DNA from: Escherichia coli
GTDB lineage: Bacteria > Pseudomonadota > Gammaproteobacteria > Enterobacterales > Enterobacteriaceae
Strand: one strand, 5' to 3'
Length of the DNA: 64,000 bases
Assembly (NCBI RefSeq): GCF_044647545.1
Contig: NZ_CP172818.1
This document shows, piece after piece, positions 20,152 to 54,324 of the stretch (its first letter is position 1; each line of letters begins with the position of its first letter). A program made the translations under genes and the position numbers. The notes beneath the pieces were generated by a model. That model was not told where the DNA came from. It saw only the letters and a program-made list of their open reading frames with translations, and searched no databases.

Positions 20152-21252
20152 TTATCGCTCGTCGCGACGACCACCCACCGCAGCCCAGATACGGCGGACG
20201 TGCACCGTCACTTCTTCGCGATCGTGATACAACTGCCGCGCCTGGATCTGAGCATTTATGCCATGTTCATCAAGCTGTGCCTGAATATACGCCAGATTGT
20301 GTGACACTTCTTCGTAGCGTTTTTTCATCGGCAGTTTGAGGTTGAAAATGCTTTCACGGCACCAGCCATTAACCAGCCACTGCGCCATCAATGCCGCAAC
20401 TTTCGCCGGTTTTTCAACCATATCGCATACCATCCAGGAGATATTGCTGCGTGTCGGACGGAATTTGAAACCGTCTTCCCGCAGCCACGTCACCTGTCCG
20501 GTATCCATCAGACTTTGCGCCATCGGGCCGTTGTCGACGGAATAAACCCACATGTTGCGCTTCACCAGTTGGTAGGTCCAGCCGCCTGGGCAAGCGCCCA
20601 AATCCACCGCCCACATCCCGTTCGCCAGGCGTTCATCCCACTCATCCGCGGGAATAAACACATGAAATGCCTCTTCCAGTTTGAGCGTGGAACGACTCGG
20701 CGCATCTGCCGGAAATTTCAGGCGCGGAATGCCCATATAGAACGGCGAATTATTGTTGCTGTATGAGTAACCGGTATAGCAACAGCCTGGTGCAATAAAG
20801 AATACATGCACAACCGGACGCTTCGGCGTTTCATAGTTCGCCAGCACCCCCGCATCACGCAAGGCAGCGCGTAGCGGCACGGTGAATTTACGGCAGAATT
20901 TCAGCAACTCTTTGCTTTCGTTGGTATCGGCAACTTCAACACGCAGTTCACCGCCCTTCTCTACTACGCCCTGTAACATACCGACAATGGGGGTAATACG
21001 ATCTTCAGGCGGCAAATGCTGCAGGAGTTCCCCCACCACAAACCACTGGCGGGCAAAAATTAATGAACTGAACGGCAGCTCACGGATTAACTTATCGCCA
21101 TCATCAGGTTGATAACATTCATAAATGACATAACCCGCATTCTCTTTCACGCGGGCAAAACCGAAAATTTCCCGCTGACCGGCTTTATCGGTAATTTCTG
21201 CGGCGCACTCTTTTTCAAAGCCCGGACGGCACAGCAATACAACCTTATTCAT
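20152..21252 (-). CDS. rlmM: 23S rRNA 2'-O-ribose C2498 methyltransferase
   Basis: 366-aa ORF recognised as RlmM (YgdE). Confidence 0.88.
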
Positions 21253-27024: not shown

Positions 27025-27191
27025 TGTTCTCTTCTTCAGGTTAAAAAATAAGGCGCAACGAAGATAACAAACCGCCGCGTTTAATGAAATGAGCAGCCTC
27101 TCCCTGACGCAAATTTTGCACAAAAACCAGGCTTTAGTGATTTGTTTTTGCTCAAAATCATACCAAATCCGTGATCTGGGTAAAAAAAAGG

Positions 27192-27219
27192 TTGCATGAA
27201 AACGCGAGCGGAGTATAGT
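27192..27219 (+). promoter_or_regulatory. Putative sigma70 promoter of the metZWV tRNA operon
   Basis: TTGCAT - 16 bp - TATAGT about 14 bp upstream of the first tRNA, preceded by an A-tract (UP-element-like). Confidence 0.5.
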
Positions 27220-27232
27220 GCGCATCCACGGA

Positions 27233-27309
<77 letters not shown>

Positions 27310-27342
27310 ATTAAAATTTGATGAAGTAAAGCAGTACGGTGA

Positions 27343-27419
<77 letters not shown>

Positions 27420-27452
27420 ATCAAAATTTAATGAAGTAAAGTAGTACGGTGA

Positions 27453-27529
<77 letters not shown>

Positions 27530-30500
27530 ATTATCTGAATACCCAAGTTTTCACAATCGTTTTTTTTATTTAAATCTTTCCTGAATCACAAAGTTTTTTA
27601 TCTCCCTTCCTCGAATAATCAATTACACTAAATTATCCCTTTCTGTATACTCAATCCCCGATATCCTTGTAATGATATTTTCATTACATCTAAATTCCCA
27701 ACGTTCAACTAAACACATCCACCCCAAAACATTTCTTCTTCAATCACCTAATAAACCCCTCATCCACAACTCCCCCCATTGATGATCAACACATCCATCA
27801 TCACAAATATTTATACTAATAAATCTCCACTCAAAAAAACAAAAAACAATGATGAATCGACTCATAAAATATCTTCAATTATACAAATGAATCCACTTTT
27901 CACAACTAATCTTTTTTCAAAACTAAAACTCAACATCAAAACAATAACCTTCCCATTTTTCCAATATCGTACCAACACAATACGTTTACCTTTAACCCAC
28001 CATCACTCACCCATACCATTTTCATCCATGATACACCGATATTTTCATCCCGAAATAATCCAATGATAAATTCCCAACCATTTGAATTAATCCCAACCAT
28101 TATTACAATAATACTATTCCTCCACGAAATCAATATTTCTATCCCCTCCCGAATCTCGATATTATTTTCACACCAACACAATAACTTCCCCTATAACAAT
28201 CTTCCCAACCCAAATAATCTCTAATCATATTCTATTTAACAATCCCACATTATTCTTAATAATAAATTAAAATTATTCTCTCTACAACCCAAAACACTCT
28301 AAAACACTACCAAACATTTTTATACACACTCACTTCAAAAACCACCCCAAAAATACTTACTGTATTTATATTTTAAATTATGAATTTCTTTAACCATCAC
28401 CCCTGATGATAAACCGAAACACACATAAATTTTTTCAATTCAAATCAACCCACCCATCACCAACAACCAAACAACATCCACACATATCTAAACTAAATTA
28501 TCCCCTCACTTTACGATTTCAACAATAAATCACAACTTACCAACATATATACTAAAAAATCAAATAATTACCCATTTTTTTCAACACATTCCCAATTTCC
28601 CTCTCACACTTTTGAAATAAAATAACAACATCTCTTCCCACATCCAATCCTGTACCCTCCTACCTAACAAAAAACGAATCCTACTCAAAATCCGATTTTC
28701 CAATAAACCGACTTACCAACACCAATAAAAACAACTTTTCCCTACAAATTTATACTTTAATTAAAACGAATCAAAATATCAATAACTCTCTACTTAATTC
28801 TTACATAAAATTTTAATAATATATCTTATTCATTTTTATTCTCCCTGATTAATATTTTTAATTACACTCACAAACCGTAACCCCATATATAATTTTTCTC
28901 ACCCACCATTCAAGAATACCCTCCCCCTCCGTTCCATAACATCCCCCCATAACCATTTCCTTCATGAATTAACACTTAAAATTCATCAAAAGATAACCAA
29001 TACAAACAATCTACCAAAAAAACAACATCACTCCTACATCAATTCAATATTTTATTCAATACTAATTGAATTAACAATATTCTTTAATGATTTACATCCC
29101 AATCTAACAATAAACAATTATATTCATACTATGGATTTACAAAACTATACGATATCTTCTAACTTATGATTAAAATTACTCATTAAATCATAAGATCTTA
29201 TCAAATTAAATTCATATCATTATACTACTACTTTTTCTTTTTTTATTTTAACCGATGTAACTACTCATTAAAAACAAAATCACTATGATTTCATCTAACA
29301 TAACAAATTATCCTTAACCACATTTTATATTCTTCTTCCACCAACTTCCTCGTTATGAGATTACATAATAACACCATCTCTTTTATCTTAAACAAATCCC
29401 ATTATACTACCCCCCTCATTTTTTATAATCAAAACTTCAAATATTCCCTATTTTTTACATCAAAAACATTAAACATTAAAAACAAATATTATCACACGAT
29501 CAATAATCTATTCTTTTCAATAATACATCACATCTATATTATCCATTCATTTTATCTTTTATATTTTATAAACCATTTACTACCATTCAATATTCACATT
29601 CAAACAGTACCTAAAATCTTTCCAAGTTTTCTTAATCCCTACACACTTCTTATCAAATCCATATCTAAATAAAATGTAATACATCTTTTACACCAAATCT
29701 CCCCAAAATCCCATTTACAATATTTCCTTCAAACAGTATTAAAAACATCCATCACATATCCATTATTATCCATATCCACCAACATGACTTTATACCGATA
29801 ATATTTATATTTTATCAATTTAATATAATTCCCCACTCTTTTTATTCTCCTCAATCAACCCATATCGATTTTAAACTAAAGATACCAATTATCCAGATTT
29901 AATATTCTCTTTACCACAATCCTTAACATCTCTCTCTTCACTCTATTTATCAACGTATATCCCTATACTATCCTCATACTTCACTACAATACTCTTCACC
30001 ACTCATCAGTTAAATTTAAAATACAACAACACAAAGTAATAAATAAAAAATACCACTTCGACACACACCTATTCAACTTTCTTCCACCAAACCCAAACTA
30101 ATAAATTGAATCAACCCATAAATCCCATCTTCACCCCATAACAAACACGAATCCATTCATAAATCATAAACAAACACATACTACAAATAAAAAAAATCCA
30201 ACTCCTACCCCCAATAATGATTAACACCCCAAATAACAATCTTTATACTTTTCTTTTACATACATCGATACACCACCCACCACCAACATACTAATCATCA
30301 TTTCTTTCCATTTTCCCCCAAACCACAATACCATTCTCTACACCCATAAAATCATCCATAATACTCTCCCCCAATCACACCTAAACCGACGTAAACAAAA
30401 ATCACCAGATTTTAACCAAAAAACTCACTCCAACTCATAAAAAATAACCGAACAACCGAATATATCATCCAATGACATGAAAATTAAAAACCCAATAAAA

Positions 30501-31641
30501 GAATGATCAACCAAACCATCATCACAATCATTAATAACACAACCTATAAAAACTAATATCTAACTAAATTAACGTCTTTTTAACACCATAATAACCCACA
30601 ACAATTCCTCTAAACCTTATTTAACTGATCCCAAATATTTATCGACATTTACACACCAATAATCTCTTTTAAATAAAATTCTCCCAGACACCCATAAAAC
30701 AATAAAGAAAAACATATTTATCCTCTTTTTTTTAATAACCAAGAATTTACCAAACAAACATAATAACAAACAAACAAACCAAAACAATAAACAATATTTT
30801 TATTATGAAACCAAAATAATTAATCCATATCATCATCTAAACATCCACCTACATCACACATACAACAACAAGAAATAAACCTCATCTAAAAAAAATCCAC
30901 TTTCTTTTATTTCATATAAATTTATATATAAAATTAATACTACGAATAAAATATATTTTCTCTAAATACATATTTAAAACAACAATACTCAATTTATGAA
31001 TTAAAATTCTTTCTCAAAAATCATAATCACAATATTCTTTTTTTTATACATAAAACAAAAAAAATAATCATCATAACTTAAATTAAATAATCTCACTTAT
31101 AAAACCGATAACTTTATTTTTTAATAATAAAAAGCATAACAATGAATTCAATTATTTAAAACAAATAAAATTCATCAAATTAAACTAAATTATAATAACA
31201 CAATATTTACAATTTATCAAAAAAAATTATTATTTTACCAAAAAATAAAACAAAAAACAAAAATTTAATTTTTCAAATACACAAACAACAACAAAACAAC
31301 AAATACATAATAATATAACGGGTGTTTTTTTGTTTCTTGTCTCCCATAAAAGAGCCAGCCATCTCAGACGACATTCCATATTTTTTTTTAACCACCCACC
31401 CAGAAATATAACCTCTCCATTCACACTTACACAATTATTTCATACTTATATCAATACTCCCAAAAAAAACAACACTCAAATAATAATACTCAAACAATAA
31501 CATACAAAATAACAACAAACAAACGAATTTTTAATTAAAAACTTTATTTTCAACGACATTCAAAATCCACATCATCACAAAACATCTAATATTCATAAAT
31601 TTATCTATCAACGAAATATAAATTCATAATAAATAAAAACA
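27530..31641. other. About 4.1-kb non-native, apparently non-coding block with extreme G-depletion on the + strand (A/C/T-rich, AT-rich); origin and function unknown
   Basis: By eye, most 60-nt lines contain 0-3 G. No ORF longer than about 105 codons in any frame, and those present translate to low-complexity peptides. No obvious long direct or inverted repeats, no integrase, no duplication of the tRNA 3' end. Fills the whole gap between metV and the amiC stop, where K-12 has only tens of bp (from memory). Confidence 0.85.
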
Positions 31642-50092: not shown

Positions 50093-52339
50093 CTATAACC
50101 CTCCGCGAATCAGCCCGCCCATGCCGCGACGCTCCATAAAGGCTGCAACCTGATGGCGAACTTCGGTCGCCAGTTGCGCTTCCAGACTACGCTGCGCAAG
50201 ATTTTCTGCTTCAGCAAAATCAATGCGCCGCAGCAGGTATTTTACGCGCGCTACAGAACGTCCGTTCATAGACAGATGGCGATACCCAAGCCCAATGAGG
50301 ATTGCCACGCACATGGGATCGCCCGCCATTTCACCGCACAAACGGAGATCGATTCCATGTATTTCCGCTTCCCGGGCGATCATCGCCAGAGCTCGTAACA
50401 TTGCAGGATGAAGACTGTCATAAATGTTCGCCACCCGGGTATTGTTGCGATCAACGGCCAGGATGTATTGCGTCAGATCGTTGGTGCCAACAGAGATGAA
50501 ATCGACCCGCTTTGCCAGATGCGGCAGCATAAATACCATTGACGGCACTTCCAGCATGATGCCGATACGTGGTTTGGGAATTTCGTAACCGATCATCTCC
50601 TCGACTTCACGTCCGGCACGTTCAATCAGGCGGCGTGCTTCGTCAACTTCATCGAGGCTTGTGACCATCGGCAACAGAATATTCAGGTTGCCCGTAGCGG
50701 CATTAGCACGCAGCATCGCACGCACCTGGATCAAGAAGATCTCCGGCTGATCGAGCGTAATGCGAATCCCACGCCAACCCAGGCATGGATTCTCTTCGCT
50801 GATCGGCATGTAAGGCAGCTGCTTATCTGCTCCGACATCCAGCGTACGCAAGGTGACGGGTTTATCATTAAACATTTGCAGCATCCCCTGATACTGCGCC
50901 ACCTGTTCTTCTTCCGACGGAAAACCACTTTGCAGCATGAATGGGATTTCAGTGCGATAAAGTCCTATGCCATCAATACGGCTGCCCAGTTTTTCTTCAT
51001 GTTCCGGGCTTAAACCGGCATTGAGCATGACTTTAATGCGCTCGCCGCTTTTTAACTGGGCGGGTAAATTGACGTCATCTTCCGCCAGACGGCTAAGCTC
51101 AATCTCTTCACTAATTAGCCGCTGATATTCTTGCAGCAGTACCGGCTCCGGATCGACCAGCAATTCACCGCGATAACCATCGACGATCAGCGTCCGACGA
51201 TGCAGCACCGAAGGCTGAATATCCGCGCCCATCACGGTAGGGATCCCCAGCGCACGTACCATGATCGCAGCATGGGAGTTGGCAGCGCCATCGCGCACGA
51301 CAACACCGACTAAGCGATCCTGGGGCAGCTCAGCAAGCGTTGTCGCTGACAGTTCATCTGCCACCAGAATGAAACGTTCCGGCCAGGCGTTCGGCCCTTG
51401 ATTAGCGTCATCAAGATGAAACAGCAATCGCTGGCCCAGCGCACGTAAATCGCCAGCCCGCTCTTTGAGATAGTTATCGCTTAGCGCGGCAAACTGTTCG
51501 GCAAATTTTTCAATGACCGTTTTTACCGCCCACTCTGCCACCGAGCCTTTATCAACCTCGGCAAACAATTCGCGACGCAGCCGGGTATCCGAAAGCAGGT
51601 GTGAGTAAAGATCGAAAATAGCCGCCGTTTCTTTTTGTGCACCGGCAGCAAAGCGTTTGCTATAACGGCGAAACTCGTTTGCCGCTTCTTCCAGCGCCCC
51701 GGTCAGTCGTTCGCGTTCCAGAGCCGGATCCAGCGTTGATGCCTGATACACCTGTTCCATTAAAGGTAACGTGGCATCCTGCCAGCCTTCGGCAATCGCC
51801 ACACCAGGTGCTGCCGGTAATGCGCGGATTCGCGTCTGGCGATATTGCCCAAACAAGGCAGTCAACTGCGACTGAGAAAGAATAGCTGCCATCTGGGTGG
51901 CAAGCGTCACCAGGAAGGATTCTTCACTTTCGTCATACTGGCGCAACTCTCGTTGCTGTACCACCAGTACACCAAGCAACTGGCGACGTTGAATAATTGG
52001 TACGCCTAAAAATGCGCGGAAACGTTCTTCTTTTACGGAGGGGACGTATTTGAAGCTGGGGTGCTTTTGCGCATCTGCAAGGTTTATCGGTTCCGCCAGC
52101 CTGCCAACCAGGCCGACGATCCCTTCATCAAACGCGAGCGTTACAGTGCGACCGCGTGGTTTTTTCAGCCCCCGGGTCGCCATCAGGTAGTAACAACGTC
52201 GATCATGATCGGCAAGGTAAACCGAACAGACCTCGGTATCCATCGCAAGACAGATGTCGGTAACCAGAATATTTAACGCCTCATTCAGGCGTGGTGCGCT
52301 GGCTACCTTTTCGACTATTTCGCGCAGGCGAGTGAGCAT
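50093..52339 (-). CDS. ptsP: PEP-protein phosphotransferase Enzyme I-Ntr (GAF domain + EI)
   Basis: 748-aa ORF recognised as PtsP. Confidence 0.92.
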   Translation of the reverse strand: MLTRLREIVEKVASAPRLNEALNILVTDICLAMDTEVCSVYLADHDRRCYYLMATRGLKKPRGRTVTLAFDEGIVGLVGRLAEPINLADAQKHPSFKYVPSVKEERFRAFLGVPIIQRRQLLGVLVVQQRELRQYDESEESFLVTLATQMAAILSQSQLTALFGQYRQTRIRALPAAPGVAIAEGWQDATLPLMEQVYQASTLDPALERERLTGALEEAANEFRRYSKRFAAGAQKETAAIFDLYSHLLSDTRLRRELFAEVDKGSVAEWAVKTVIEKFAEQFAALSDNYLKERAGDLRALGQRLLFHLDDANQGPNAWPERFILVADELSATTLAELPQDRLVGVVVRDGAANSHAAIMVRALGIPTVMGADIQPSVLHRRTLIVDGYRGELLVDPEPVLLQEYQRLISEEIELSRLAEDDVNLPAQLKSGERIKVMLNAGLSPEHEEKLGSRIDGIGLYRTEIPFMLQSGFPSEEEQVAQYQGMLQMFNDKPVTLRTLDVGADKQLPYMPISEENPCLGWRGIRITLDQPEIFLIQVRAMLRANAATGNLNILLPMVTSLDEVDEARRLIERAGREVEEMIGYEIPKPRIGIMLEVPSMVFMLPHLAKRVDFISVGTNDLTQYILAVDRNNTRVANIYDSLHPAMLRALAMIAREAEIHGIDLRLCGEMAGDPMCVAILIGLGYRHLSMNGRSVARVKYLLRRIDFAEAENLAQRSLEAQLATEVRHQVAAFMERRGMGGLIRGGL

Positions 52340-52351
52340 AATTGGCGTGAC

Positions 52352-52882
52352 TTAACCTCTTTTACGTCGATAAGCAGATGCGTTTTGTGGTTTTGGCGTA
52401 TTTTCCTGCAGTGACATCACCACACTCGCGAACTCTTTCATTACCTTACGGTAGACATCACGTTTAAATGACACCACCTGTCTGACCGGATACCAGTAAC
52501 TTACCCATCGCCAGCCGTCAAACTCTGGTGTACTGCTGGTTTGCATATTGATTTCTGCATCGCCGCTCACCAGCTGCAAGAGAAACCATTTTTGTTTTTG
52601 GCCGATACAAACCGGCTTCGTGTCCCAACGCACCAAACGTTTCGGTAATTTGTAGCGCAACCAGTTACGCGTTGAAGCAAGGATTCGAACGTCTTTACGG
52701 CTTAATCCTACTTCTTCAAACAATTCACGGTACATCGCCTGCTCTGCGGATTCTCCGGGGTTGATTCCGCCTTGCGGAAATTGCCAGGAGTGCTGACCAA
52801 ATCGCCGGGCCCACATTACCTGCCCCTGGCGATTACAAATCACGATACCTACGTTTGGGCGGTAGCCATCGTCATCAATCAC
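52352..52882 (-). CDS. rppH: RNA pyrophosphohydrolase (Nudix)
   Basis: 176-aa ORF with Nudix box [22 protein letters not shown]; recognised as RppH (NudH). Confidence 0.92.
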
Positions 52883-53566
52883 CGGACTACCTCAAAATAA
52901 AGCTTTATATACGAATGATTGTTTCATACTCCAGGAAGACGGTAAACCACTCTCTGCAGGGCATTACACACTAATAACAATTGAATAACTCACAGTTATG
53001 TGCAGAGTTATAAACAGAGGAAGGGGTGGATAGCCGTTTTTATTCACCTTTTCTGTGGATAGAGTTGTGAAGAACTACGGAATTACTACGGGAAAACCCG
53101 GAGCATTCTGAATAAGCCCGATATAGACATTTTAAAATATTCATTATCAGTCAATGCATTACATGTAATTTTAGTAATAAAAAAGAGTAATTCGTGACCC
53201 AGGTCACACCTCTCATTTACGGGTTGGCGAAAGATCAACCAATGCCGTATTTATCCACAGAATGTGCCACTAAGTTAAGCACTGAACCACTAAAAACTGG
53301 AGTTTCGTCGCACGTCAAGGCTGTAAATGGAAACAGTAGTGGAGGTTTTTCACAGTTATCCCAGCTTTCTGTGGATAACATGGTGTAAGATCCTGTTTAT
53401 TTTCAGTGACCAGATTTGGAAAACCCATTGCAGTGTTGCGCAACTCGATTACCGGCAACCTAAAAAGCAATATAAATCAGAGGATTGAACAACGCCTGTG
53501 GAAAAAGTTACACTGCGAATATTCGGCACATAATTGCTGTTTGTTTTTTAACCAAGGTATCGTGAC

Positions 53567-54256
53567 ATGTCCCAACCTCGCCCACTGCTCTCTCCTCCCG
53601 AAACTGAAGAACAGTTGTTAGCGCAAGCACAGCAACTTTCTGGTTATACATTGGGAGAACTGGCGGCACTTGCCGGGCTGGTTACGCCAGAGAATTTAAA
53701 ACGCGATAAGGGCTGGATTGGCGTGTTACTGGAGATCTGGCTAGGTGCCAGCGCAGGGAGTAAACCTGAGCAAGATTTTGCTGCTCTGGGCGTGGAACTT
53801 AAAACTATCCCTGTGGATAGTCTTGGTCGTCCGCTGGAAACAACATTCGTTTGTGTTGCCCCGTTAACGGGTAATAGCGGGGTGACCTGGGAAACCAGCC
53901 ACGTGCGCCACAAGCTCAAACGCGTACTGTGGATACCGGTTGAAGGCGAGCGCAGCATCCCGCTGGCGCAGCGTCGCGTAGGATCACCGTTACTGTGGAG
54001 CCCGAATGAAGAGGAAGACCGACAGCTACGCGAAGACTGGGAAGAATTAATGGATATGATTGTTCTCGGTCAGGTTGAGCGGATTACCGCTCGTCACGGG
54101 GAATATTTACAGATACGACCGAAAGCAGCGAATGCGAAAGCGCTTACCGAAGCCATTGGTGCCCGGGGCGAACGGATTCTGACGCTGCCACGCGGCTTTT
54201 ATTTGAAGAAGAATTTCACCAGTGCACTACTGGCCCATCATTTTCTGATCCAGTAG
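53567..54256 (+). CDS. mutH: DNA mismatch repair endonuclease MutH
   Basis: 229-aa ORF recognised as MutH. Confidence 0.92.
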
Positions 54257-54324
54257 CCATCGCTTTGACCTGCCGCTTTCCGGGCATATAATTACCGCTT
54301 CATTTTTTTGGCAGGGCTTTTTAG

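Follow-up and report, generated by a model that had tools for sequence, protein, structure and literature searches.

What is carried by the 684 bp of DNA that separate rppH from mutH in Escherichia coli? We examined this question in a stretch of 64,000 nucleotides (contig NZ_CP172818.1 of assembly GCF_044647545.1), referred to here as the window, in which the intergenic gap occupies positions 52883–53566 between rppH (52352–52882, minus strand) and mutH (53567–54256, plus strand). The gap has a G+C content of 39%, compared with a window average of 50%. An earlier note on this DNA had described a gap of about 680 bp with short open reading frames (ORFs) only, and the coordinates agree with that description. 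The two plus-strand ORFs that it named, both with GTG starts, are present as claimed: one of 64 amino acids at 53194–53388, and one of 71 amino acids at 53406–53621 that overlaps the start of mutH. Its list of ORFs covered the plus strand only. The note had also stated that K-12 annotates a small gene (ygdT) here, whose frame it could not confirm, and had proposed that the gap probably holds the mutH promoter and possibly a small protein or small RNA.

Of 5426 complete E. coli genomes, 5424 have the gap at an identity of at least 95%, and many E. coli chromosomes are 100% identical to it. In the RefSeq annotation of K-12 the gene order rppH-gap-mutH is the same, and a position in NC_000913.3 is obtained by adding 2,916,095 to the position in the window. 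Six bases of the gap are unlike K-12 (53179, 53427, 53483, 53496, 53552, and 53562).

Identity and map of the element in the gap

Repeated motifs in the gap, TGTGGATA and TTATCCACA, can be read directly as DnaA boxes. In a scan of the 64-kb window for TTWTNCACA, the gap had four perfect boxes, where a 684-bp segment has 0.10 on average, and ten boxes with at most one mismatch, where the average is 1.2 and the maximum among the segments that do not overlap the gap is 7. The enrichment over the rest of the window is 8- to 40-fold.

We have very little doubt that the gap carries DARS2, chromosomal DnaA-reactivating sequence 2 of E. coli. DARS2 has been placed upstream of mutH (PMC11317965; PMC5835720), and its location, the rppH (ygpD)-mutH intergenic region, is that of the gap. 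Borders of the element were assigned by exact string matches of some two dozen primers and oligonucleotides from DARS2 papers (PMC4245941 supplement; PMC8682772). Primers MutH-4 and MutH-2 (PMC4245941 supplement) define the 455-bp fragment of the literature, which spans 53017–53471, and the minimal element (deltaRight), also delimited by exactly matching published primers, spans 53017–53249. Three DnaA ChIP-seq peaks reported at DARS2 of K-12, at 2969124, 2969306, and 2969501 (PMC11317965), convert to 53029, 53211, and 53406 in the window, where the "double DnaA box" sequences given for the published peaks are also present. For IHF and Fis, both ChIP and footprints have been published for the K-12 element. 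DARS2 is a non-coding, well-studied site that is already known, and it takes up two thirds of the gap.

The core of the element begins with DnaA box I (TTATTCACC, 53040–53048, plus strand), found by consensus scan with one mismatch. It stands head-to-head with box II (CTATCCACA, 53054–53062, minus strand) across the 5-bp spacer TTTTC, and box III (TTCTTCACA, 53066–53074, minus strand), also from the consensus scan, follows box II. Boxes II and III constitute a "double DnaA box" from ChIP-seq (PMC11317965), and the published deltaCore deletion removes exactly 53040–53074, that is, boxes I–III. Box IV (TTATTCAGA, 53107–53115, minus strand), which lies between primers Ksh-30 and Ksh-31, is dispensable.

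Two IHF sites come next, each with one mismatch to the IHF consensus (TAAnnnnTTGATW): IBS1 (TAAAATATTCATT, 53133–53145, plus strand) and IBS2 (TAATGCATTGACT, 53149–53161, minus strand). They are 3 bp apart, as in the published map, and sit roughly midway between the core and the Fis sites FBS2-3, with center distances of about 90 and 92 bp, respectively. Fis site FBS1 (GAGTAATTCGTGACC, 53185–53199), present in oligonucleotide FIS-1U, matches GnnYAnnnnnTRnnC perfectly and is dispensable. The essential 21-mer with FBS2-3 (53229–53250), located by primer pairs MutH-11/17 and MutH-24/25, contains a GATC and adjoins box V (TTATCCACA, 53251–53259, plus strand), a perfect DnaA box. A 52-nt FBS2-5 oligonucleotide (PMC8682772) matches 53221–53272 exactly and contains box V; together with the flanking low-affinity boxes V-a, V-b, and V-c, box V forms the FBS2-5 negative-feedback module (PMC8682772).

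The right-hand portion holds box VI (53370–53378, minus strand), a perfect box with the same sequence as box V; it is precisely the 9-mer bracketed by primers Ksh-34 and Ksh-35. A further consensus box, TTTTTCACA, at 53346–53354 on the plus strand is outside the published boxes I–VI. Fis site FBS6 (53427–53441) is dispensable and is the only named site touched by a difference from K-12: the first G of its consensus, at 53427, is an A in the window. None of the six differences falls in the core, IBS1-2, FBS1-5, or boxes I–VI. Four lie outside the 455-bp fragment, and the remaining one, at 53179 (A here, G in K-12), is between IBS2 and FBS1.

Conservation across Enterobacteriaceae and the right half

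A search with MutH provided 80 loci from species of Enterobacteriaceae, and the identities given below are those of the other species to the base in the window. The gene rppH is upstream of mutH in all 79 loci in which both genes were found, and the gap is 678–688 bp long in every species but one, Intestinirhabdus (808 bp). A word-indexed protein search gave close relatives only. Among MutH relatives at 53–59% identity, the contigs were very short or had no called rppH adjoining mutH, and no DnaA-box cluster was found in the 2.6 kb scanned on the contigs lacking rppH.

Conservation is uneven along the element. Identity is 0.95 for core boxes I–III and 1.00 for the spacer between boxes I and II; box I has one mismatch to the consensus in 79 of the 80 species. 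Boxes V and VI are invariant (1.00, 80/80). The 21-mer with FBS2-3 has an identity of 0.73, with its AAAGATC conserved across species, and box IV has 0.70. IBS2 is at 0.58, with the IHF consensus positions TCAA...TTA kept across genera, followed by IBS1 (0.50), FBS1 (0.48), and FBS6 (0.43). Conservation of IBS1, FBS1, box IV, and FBS6 is poor beyond Escherichia, so that the published E. coli map is in part lineage-specific. The spacing is fixed. Box I and box V are 220 bp apart in 80/80 species with zero indels, and box I and box VI are 339 bp apart in 78/80, whereas outside, on the sides of rppH and mutH, lengths differ among species. Fixed spacing over spacers whose sequence is poorly conserved would be expected of a looped nucleoprotein machine, and it fits the published loss of activity when IBS or FBS are shifted by 5–10 bp. 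Both the identity of the element with the published one and the deep conservation of its sites and spacing are matters of observation.

The block at 53293–53422, in the right half of DARS2, has an identity of 0.89 over the 79 other species (the first 60 nt of mutH reach 0.59) and is better conserved than IBS1-2 or FBS2-3 (0.50–0.73). The strongest DnaA ChIP-seq peak of the locus also falls in it, near 53406 (2969501 in K-12), and its coverage of 213 equals the level of datA and is near that of oriC, 218 (PMC11317965). Within it, at 53352–53396, there is a second triplet that resembles a DARS core: TTATCCCAG (plus strand), CTTTC, box VI (minus strand), 2 bp, and CTTACACCA (minus strand). Read as one string, TTATCCCAG, CTTTC, TGTGGATAA, CA, TGGTGTAAG, it repeats the DARS core architecture. 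In alignments to the K-12 DARS1 core the box VI triplet scores 45.5 and the DARS2 core 32.5, and the similarity of the triplet to the DARS2 core exceeds that of 500/500 shuffles.

One question is whether this right half is a dispensable appendage or a separate, DARS1-like DnaA assembly module anchored on box VI, which in the chromosome would act as a DnaA sink, a loader, or a regulator of the core. The second reading complements the identification of DARS2. It would account for the high identity, for the constant 339 bp from box I, for the closeness of the triplet to DARS1, and for the ChIP-seq coverage, but on the multicopy DARS2 plasmid neither deletion of the right half nor substitution of box VI reduces over-initiation. 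The deltaCore plasmid keeps the right half, yet is inactive, so the box VI cluster is not a stand-alone DARS. Moreover, the box-I-like TTATCCCAG has three mismatches in 78/80 species, and a head-to-head DnaA dimer may therefore not form there. We hold the module as a tentative proposal that falls somewhat short of probable. Since the best-conserved block is dispensable in plasmid assays, the known mechanism leaves some of the constraint on the gap unexplained.

An additional motif was observed in the same block. The sequence CTGTAAATGGAAACAG at 53321–53336, within the invariant stretch 53313–53342, has the form CTGT-N8-ACAG, the core of a LexA box. It reaches 12.0 bits, against 12.5 for the weakest known LexA box, in a rough position weight matrix, a borderline score that leaves the motif as a lead only. 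Our search for literature supporting a LexA box at this position found none.

CRP site, predicted promoters, and small reading frames

A CRP site (ttCGTGAcccaggTCACAcct, 53191–53211) overlaps FBS1 and lies in minimal DARS2 between the IHF and Fis sites. Its central part, cGTGAcccaggTCACA at 53193–53208, differs by one mismatch from the palindrome TGTGA-N6-TCACA. The half-sites GTGA and TCAC are invariant in 80/80 species while the 6-bp spacer varies, and the palindrome is found with at most one mismatch in 73/80; in most genera CGTGA or TGTGA is followed by a TGATCA-like spacer. A 2026 preprint on Footprint-seq reports exactly this sequence as a novel CRP site, with a Kd of 2.7 nM in vitro on K-12 DNA (PMC12871828). 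The entry is given there as 2969301, "rppH / mutH", and DARS2 is unmentioned (PMC12871828). No link was found in a literature search for DARS2 and CRP together.

Published oligonucleotides for the subFBS1 substitution change TCGTGACC to TCGATACG, which destroys the left CRP half-site, and the published subFBS1 mutant showed slightly increased initiation. All the growth assays in the DARS2 papers that we found were made in glucose-containing or supplemented M9 medium, in which cAMP is expected to be low. Given an invariant site within minimal DARS2 and the affinity measured in vitro, cAMP-CRP could tune the reactivation of DnaA. If so, cAMP-CRP would couple DnaA reactivation, and hence replication initiation, to carbon supply. 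That DARS2 integrates more than DnaA, IHF, and Fis, through the predicted tuning by CRP together with a DARS1-like DnaA assembly module in the right half that would be under stronger purifying selection than the essential IHF and Fis sites, is a speculative proposal that we consider rather unlikely as a whole.

Signals for transcription are predicted in the gap. The last 60 bp or so before mutH likely hold its promoter and ribosome-binding site. The expectation of a mutH promoter in the gap was borne out at the level of prediction by a sigma-70-like sequence, GTTACA-16-CATAAT (53507–53534, plus strand), suitably spaced upstream of the gene, at the position of which other genera have a TATAAA-type -10. 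A SELEX study with RNA polymerase holoenzyme reports binding of the enzyme in this spacer and agrees in placing both the rppH and mutH promoters there (Shimada 2014, PMC3946193). Its own predictions are TCGGCA-18-TTTAAT for mutH and TTGACG-18-TTTAGT (53289–53318, minus strand) for rppH-ptsP (PMC3946193). In the latter the -35 TTGACG is invariant and the -10 is not conserved across species, and we therefore treat this promoter as unproven. Other candidates picked by eye in the right half lose their -10 in other genera, and no promoter was assigned there.

The first 130 bp or so beside rppH comprise conserved sequence that is possibly the promoter or leader of rppH. A block conserved in the species alignment, CTAATAACAATTGAATAACTCACAGTTAT ... 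GAGTTATAAACAGAG, lies at 52971–53018, to the left of DARS2, and the consensus scan places in it a DnaA box with one mismatch, TTATAAACA, at 53008–53016.

Could the gap instead be an ordinary spacer between divergent promoters, the notable content of which is a small protein gene, either ygdT or one of the plus-strand ORFs? The earlier note was correct that K-12 carries an annotated ygdT here, and comparison with the K-12 annotation placed its frame on the minus strand: ygdT (b4610), 48 amino acids beginning MLSTESWDNC, at 53235–53381. RefSeq annotates it in K-12 and other strains, including one with an identical gap. Escherichia and roughly one in four of the sampled genera have the ORF intact, and an AGGA stands 9 nt 5' of its ATG. 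However, the start and open frame are kept in only 24–25 of 80 species, and elsewhere there are in-frame stops, or the ATG or stop is lost, in many species. The divergence at the three codon positions is flat (0.21/0.22/0.17), with no excess at the third, compared with 0.001/0.001/0.32 in rppH and 0.34/0.28/0.59 in mutH. The whole of ygdT is within DARS2. Box VI falls in its opening codons, the four ATG TTA TCC ACA, and its C-terminal VDK is encoded by box V; the conserved islands of the peptide, LSTE.WDN, FTALT, and SVDK, correspond to box VI, the invariant DNA block 53313–53332, and box V.

The plus-strand frames fare no better as genes, the 64-residue one being open in 30/80 species and the 71-residue one in 2/80. 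ORFs of 50–70 codons at 39% G+C are the chance expectation. Neither ygdT nor the 64-residue ORF has a family in Pfam or NCBIfam, and the 71-residue ORF has only a sub-threshold conotoxin match in these collections. A search of the literature retrieved no reports of YgdT expression. In the occurrences examined, "YgdT" as the name of a protein is a misspelling of YdgT, the Hha paralogue, and most other occurrences are apparently YGDT polymerase motifs or unrelated.

With a frame broken in most genera, no third-position bias, and no family, the small protein was not borne out, and we regard an ordinary spacer with a small protein gene as highly improbable. Because the frame is not kept and codon-position bias is lacking, ygdT is probably not a real gene; judged from sequence comparison, the annotation is most likely an artefact, produced by non-coding DNA that is conserved. 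The short ORFs in general, ygdT included, would be by-products of such DNA.

The suggestion of a small RNA did not hold up either. That 53293–53422 encodes a small regulatory RNA or structured leader deserves hardly any credence: the block is indeed 0.89 identical across genera, above the start of the mutH coding sequence, and a terminator-like hairpin with a T-run follows at 53524–53550 on the plus strand, but an Rfam scan of 52300–54300 at E ≤ 1 gave no match in the gap, the block folds with unremarkable energy on either strand (z = -0.85 and -1.02), inspection of the alignment revealed no conserved -10 on either strand, and with so little variation the block leaves no room for covariation. 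Moreover, a perfect DnaA box lies inside it and the locus has its strongest DnaA ChIP-seq peak there, which suggests that the constraint acts on the DNA itself. The sole Rfam match in 52300–54300 was a nematode snoRNA, a chance hit inside mutH.

No observation speaks against DARS2 as the identity of the gap. Overall, the earlier reading stands for the mutH promoter and the ygdT annotation and fails for the small protein and the small RNA, and it missed the dominant feature, DARS2.

DARS2 mechanism and known relatives

The original DARS paper is reportedly that of Fujimitsu 2009. In the mechanism described in the literature for the same sequence, ADP-DnaA occupies core boxes I–III, of which boxes I and II are head-to-head, and a bend made by IHF at IBS1-2 lets Fis at FBS2-3, about 90 bp further, meet the DnaA dimer. 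ADP then leaves DnaA, which in its free form acquires ATP and becomes initiation-competent ATP-DnaA. As ATP-DnaA accumulates, oligomers extend from box V over FBS2-5, displacing Fis and turning the site off by negative feedback. In published experiments the K-12 DARS2 sequence promotes ADP release from ADP-DnaA and raises both ATP-DnaA and initiation frequency, and shifts of IBS or FBS by 5–10 bp impair its activity. By analogy with these K-12 experiments, the element in the window would be expected to have the same biochemical activity.

A long gap that looks empty is in this case a known non-coding element that binds proteins. DARS2 is the main chromosomal site regenerating active ATP-DnaA and helps to set the timing and synchrony of initiation in E. 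coli; its deletion leads to a higher initiation mass and lower fitness. For specialists in replication the present analysis offers two modest leads, the CRP site, deeply conserved and set in the IHF-Fis loop, and the right half, whose conservation exceeds that of the sites proven essential, both of which go undiscussed in the DARS2 literature that we found.

How does the element compare with known systems? DARS2 of K-12 (PMC4245941 Kasho 2014; PMC8682772 Miyoshi 2021; PMC11724364 NAR 2025) is at the same locus, and boxes I–VI, IBS1-2, FBS1-5, and their spacing are identical to those in the window; it differs by a G at 53179 and at 53427, where the window has A. The origin, oriC, likewise combines high- and low-affinity DnaA boxes with IHF and Fis sites. 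Its boxes form head-to-tail arrays, whereas those of the DARS2 core are head-to-head; no AT-rich 13-mer unwinding element as in oriC was seen in the gap, and there is no report of DARS2 firing as an origin. Like DARS2, datA is a non-coding locus where clustered DnaA boxes and an IHF site serve to control which nucleotide DnaA carries, and its DnaA ChIP-seq signal is comparable to that of DARS2, but it has the opposite effect, hydrolysis of DnaA-bound ATP, uses no Fis, and is at another locus. DARS1, in the bioD-uvrB spacer and absent from the window, has the same core layout as DARS2: boxes I and II face opposite ways across 5 bp, and box III comes after them (PMC11724364). It is 101 bp long and needs neither IHF nor Fis, whereas DARS2 requires both.

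A CRP-type palindrome in minimal DARS2

Minimal DARS2 (53017-53249), the shortest form of the DnaA-reactivating sequence in the 684-bp gap between rppH and mutH, contains a CRP-type palindrome, cGTGA-N6-TCACA, at 53191-53211, which overlaps the Fis site FBS1 (53185-53199). Both half-sites are invariant in all 80 Enterobacteriaceae species compared, and the spacer between them varies. The same sequence was reported as a novel CRP site with an in vitro Kd of 2.7 nM (PMC12871828, a 2026 preprint), and that entry makes no link to DARS2. We find that the published subFBS1 mutation also destroys the left half-site of the palindrome.

GATC sites, FBS6 and LexA-like sequences

The gap holds only two GATC (Dam) sites, both at highly conserved positions: one at 53233, inside the essential 21-mer that carries FBS2-3, and the other at 53389, inside the invariant GTGTAAGATC adjoining DnaA box VI. 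In other genera, the spacer of the CRP site also carries GATC in most cases. At 53427 the source strain has A vs G in K-12, this being the first consensus G of the Fis site FBS6, which is reported to be dispensable.

The sequence GGCTGTAAATGGAAACAGTA (53319-53338), which hardly varies between genera, has a LexA-box core, CTGT-N8-ACAG. Scored with a rough position weight matrix, it reached 12.0 bits, just under known SOS boxes; a literature search found no support for a LexA box at this position. The top LexA match of the window by the same rough matrix was TGCTGTATGAGTAACCGGTA (20757-20776), at 13.7 bits.

DnaA boxes outside DARS2 and published DnaA peaks

The stretch that separates rppH from DARS2 contains a conserved block, CTAATAACAATTGAATAACTCACAGTTAT ... 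GAGTTATAAACAGAG (52971-53018), which includes a DnaA box with one mismatch, TTATAAACA (53008-53016). This block may represent an rppH promoter or leader, or additional DnaA sites. Elsewhere in the window, at 27100-30650, several 684-bp windows have 5-7 DnaA boxes (at most one mismatch), a density second to that of the DARS2 gap, and two boxes are perfect (27114 and 28320). This density may be a mere effect of base composition.

We take NC_000913.2 and NC_000913.3 to be offset by about 2 kb, which would put the DARS2 peaks of the published DnaA ChIP-seq downstream of mutH in the older numbering. The coordinates in Table 1 of that study (PMC11317965) are declared as NC_000913.2, and its DARS2 peaks fall inside the rppH-mutH gap under NC_000913.3 numbering only.

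The right half of DARS2

Conservation of the 130-bp block at 53293-53422 exceeds that of the essential IHF and Fis sites, and the block was dispensable in plasmid assays. Within it, a second triplet resembling a DARS core (53352-53396) flanks and includes DnaA box VI (53370-53378, minus strand). Its likeness to the core of DARS1, the bioD-uvrB site, is closer than that of the recognised DARS2 core.
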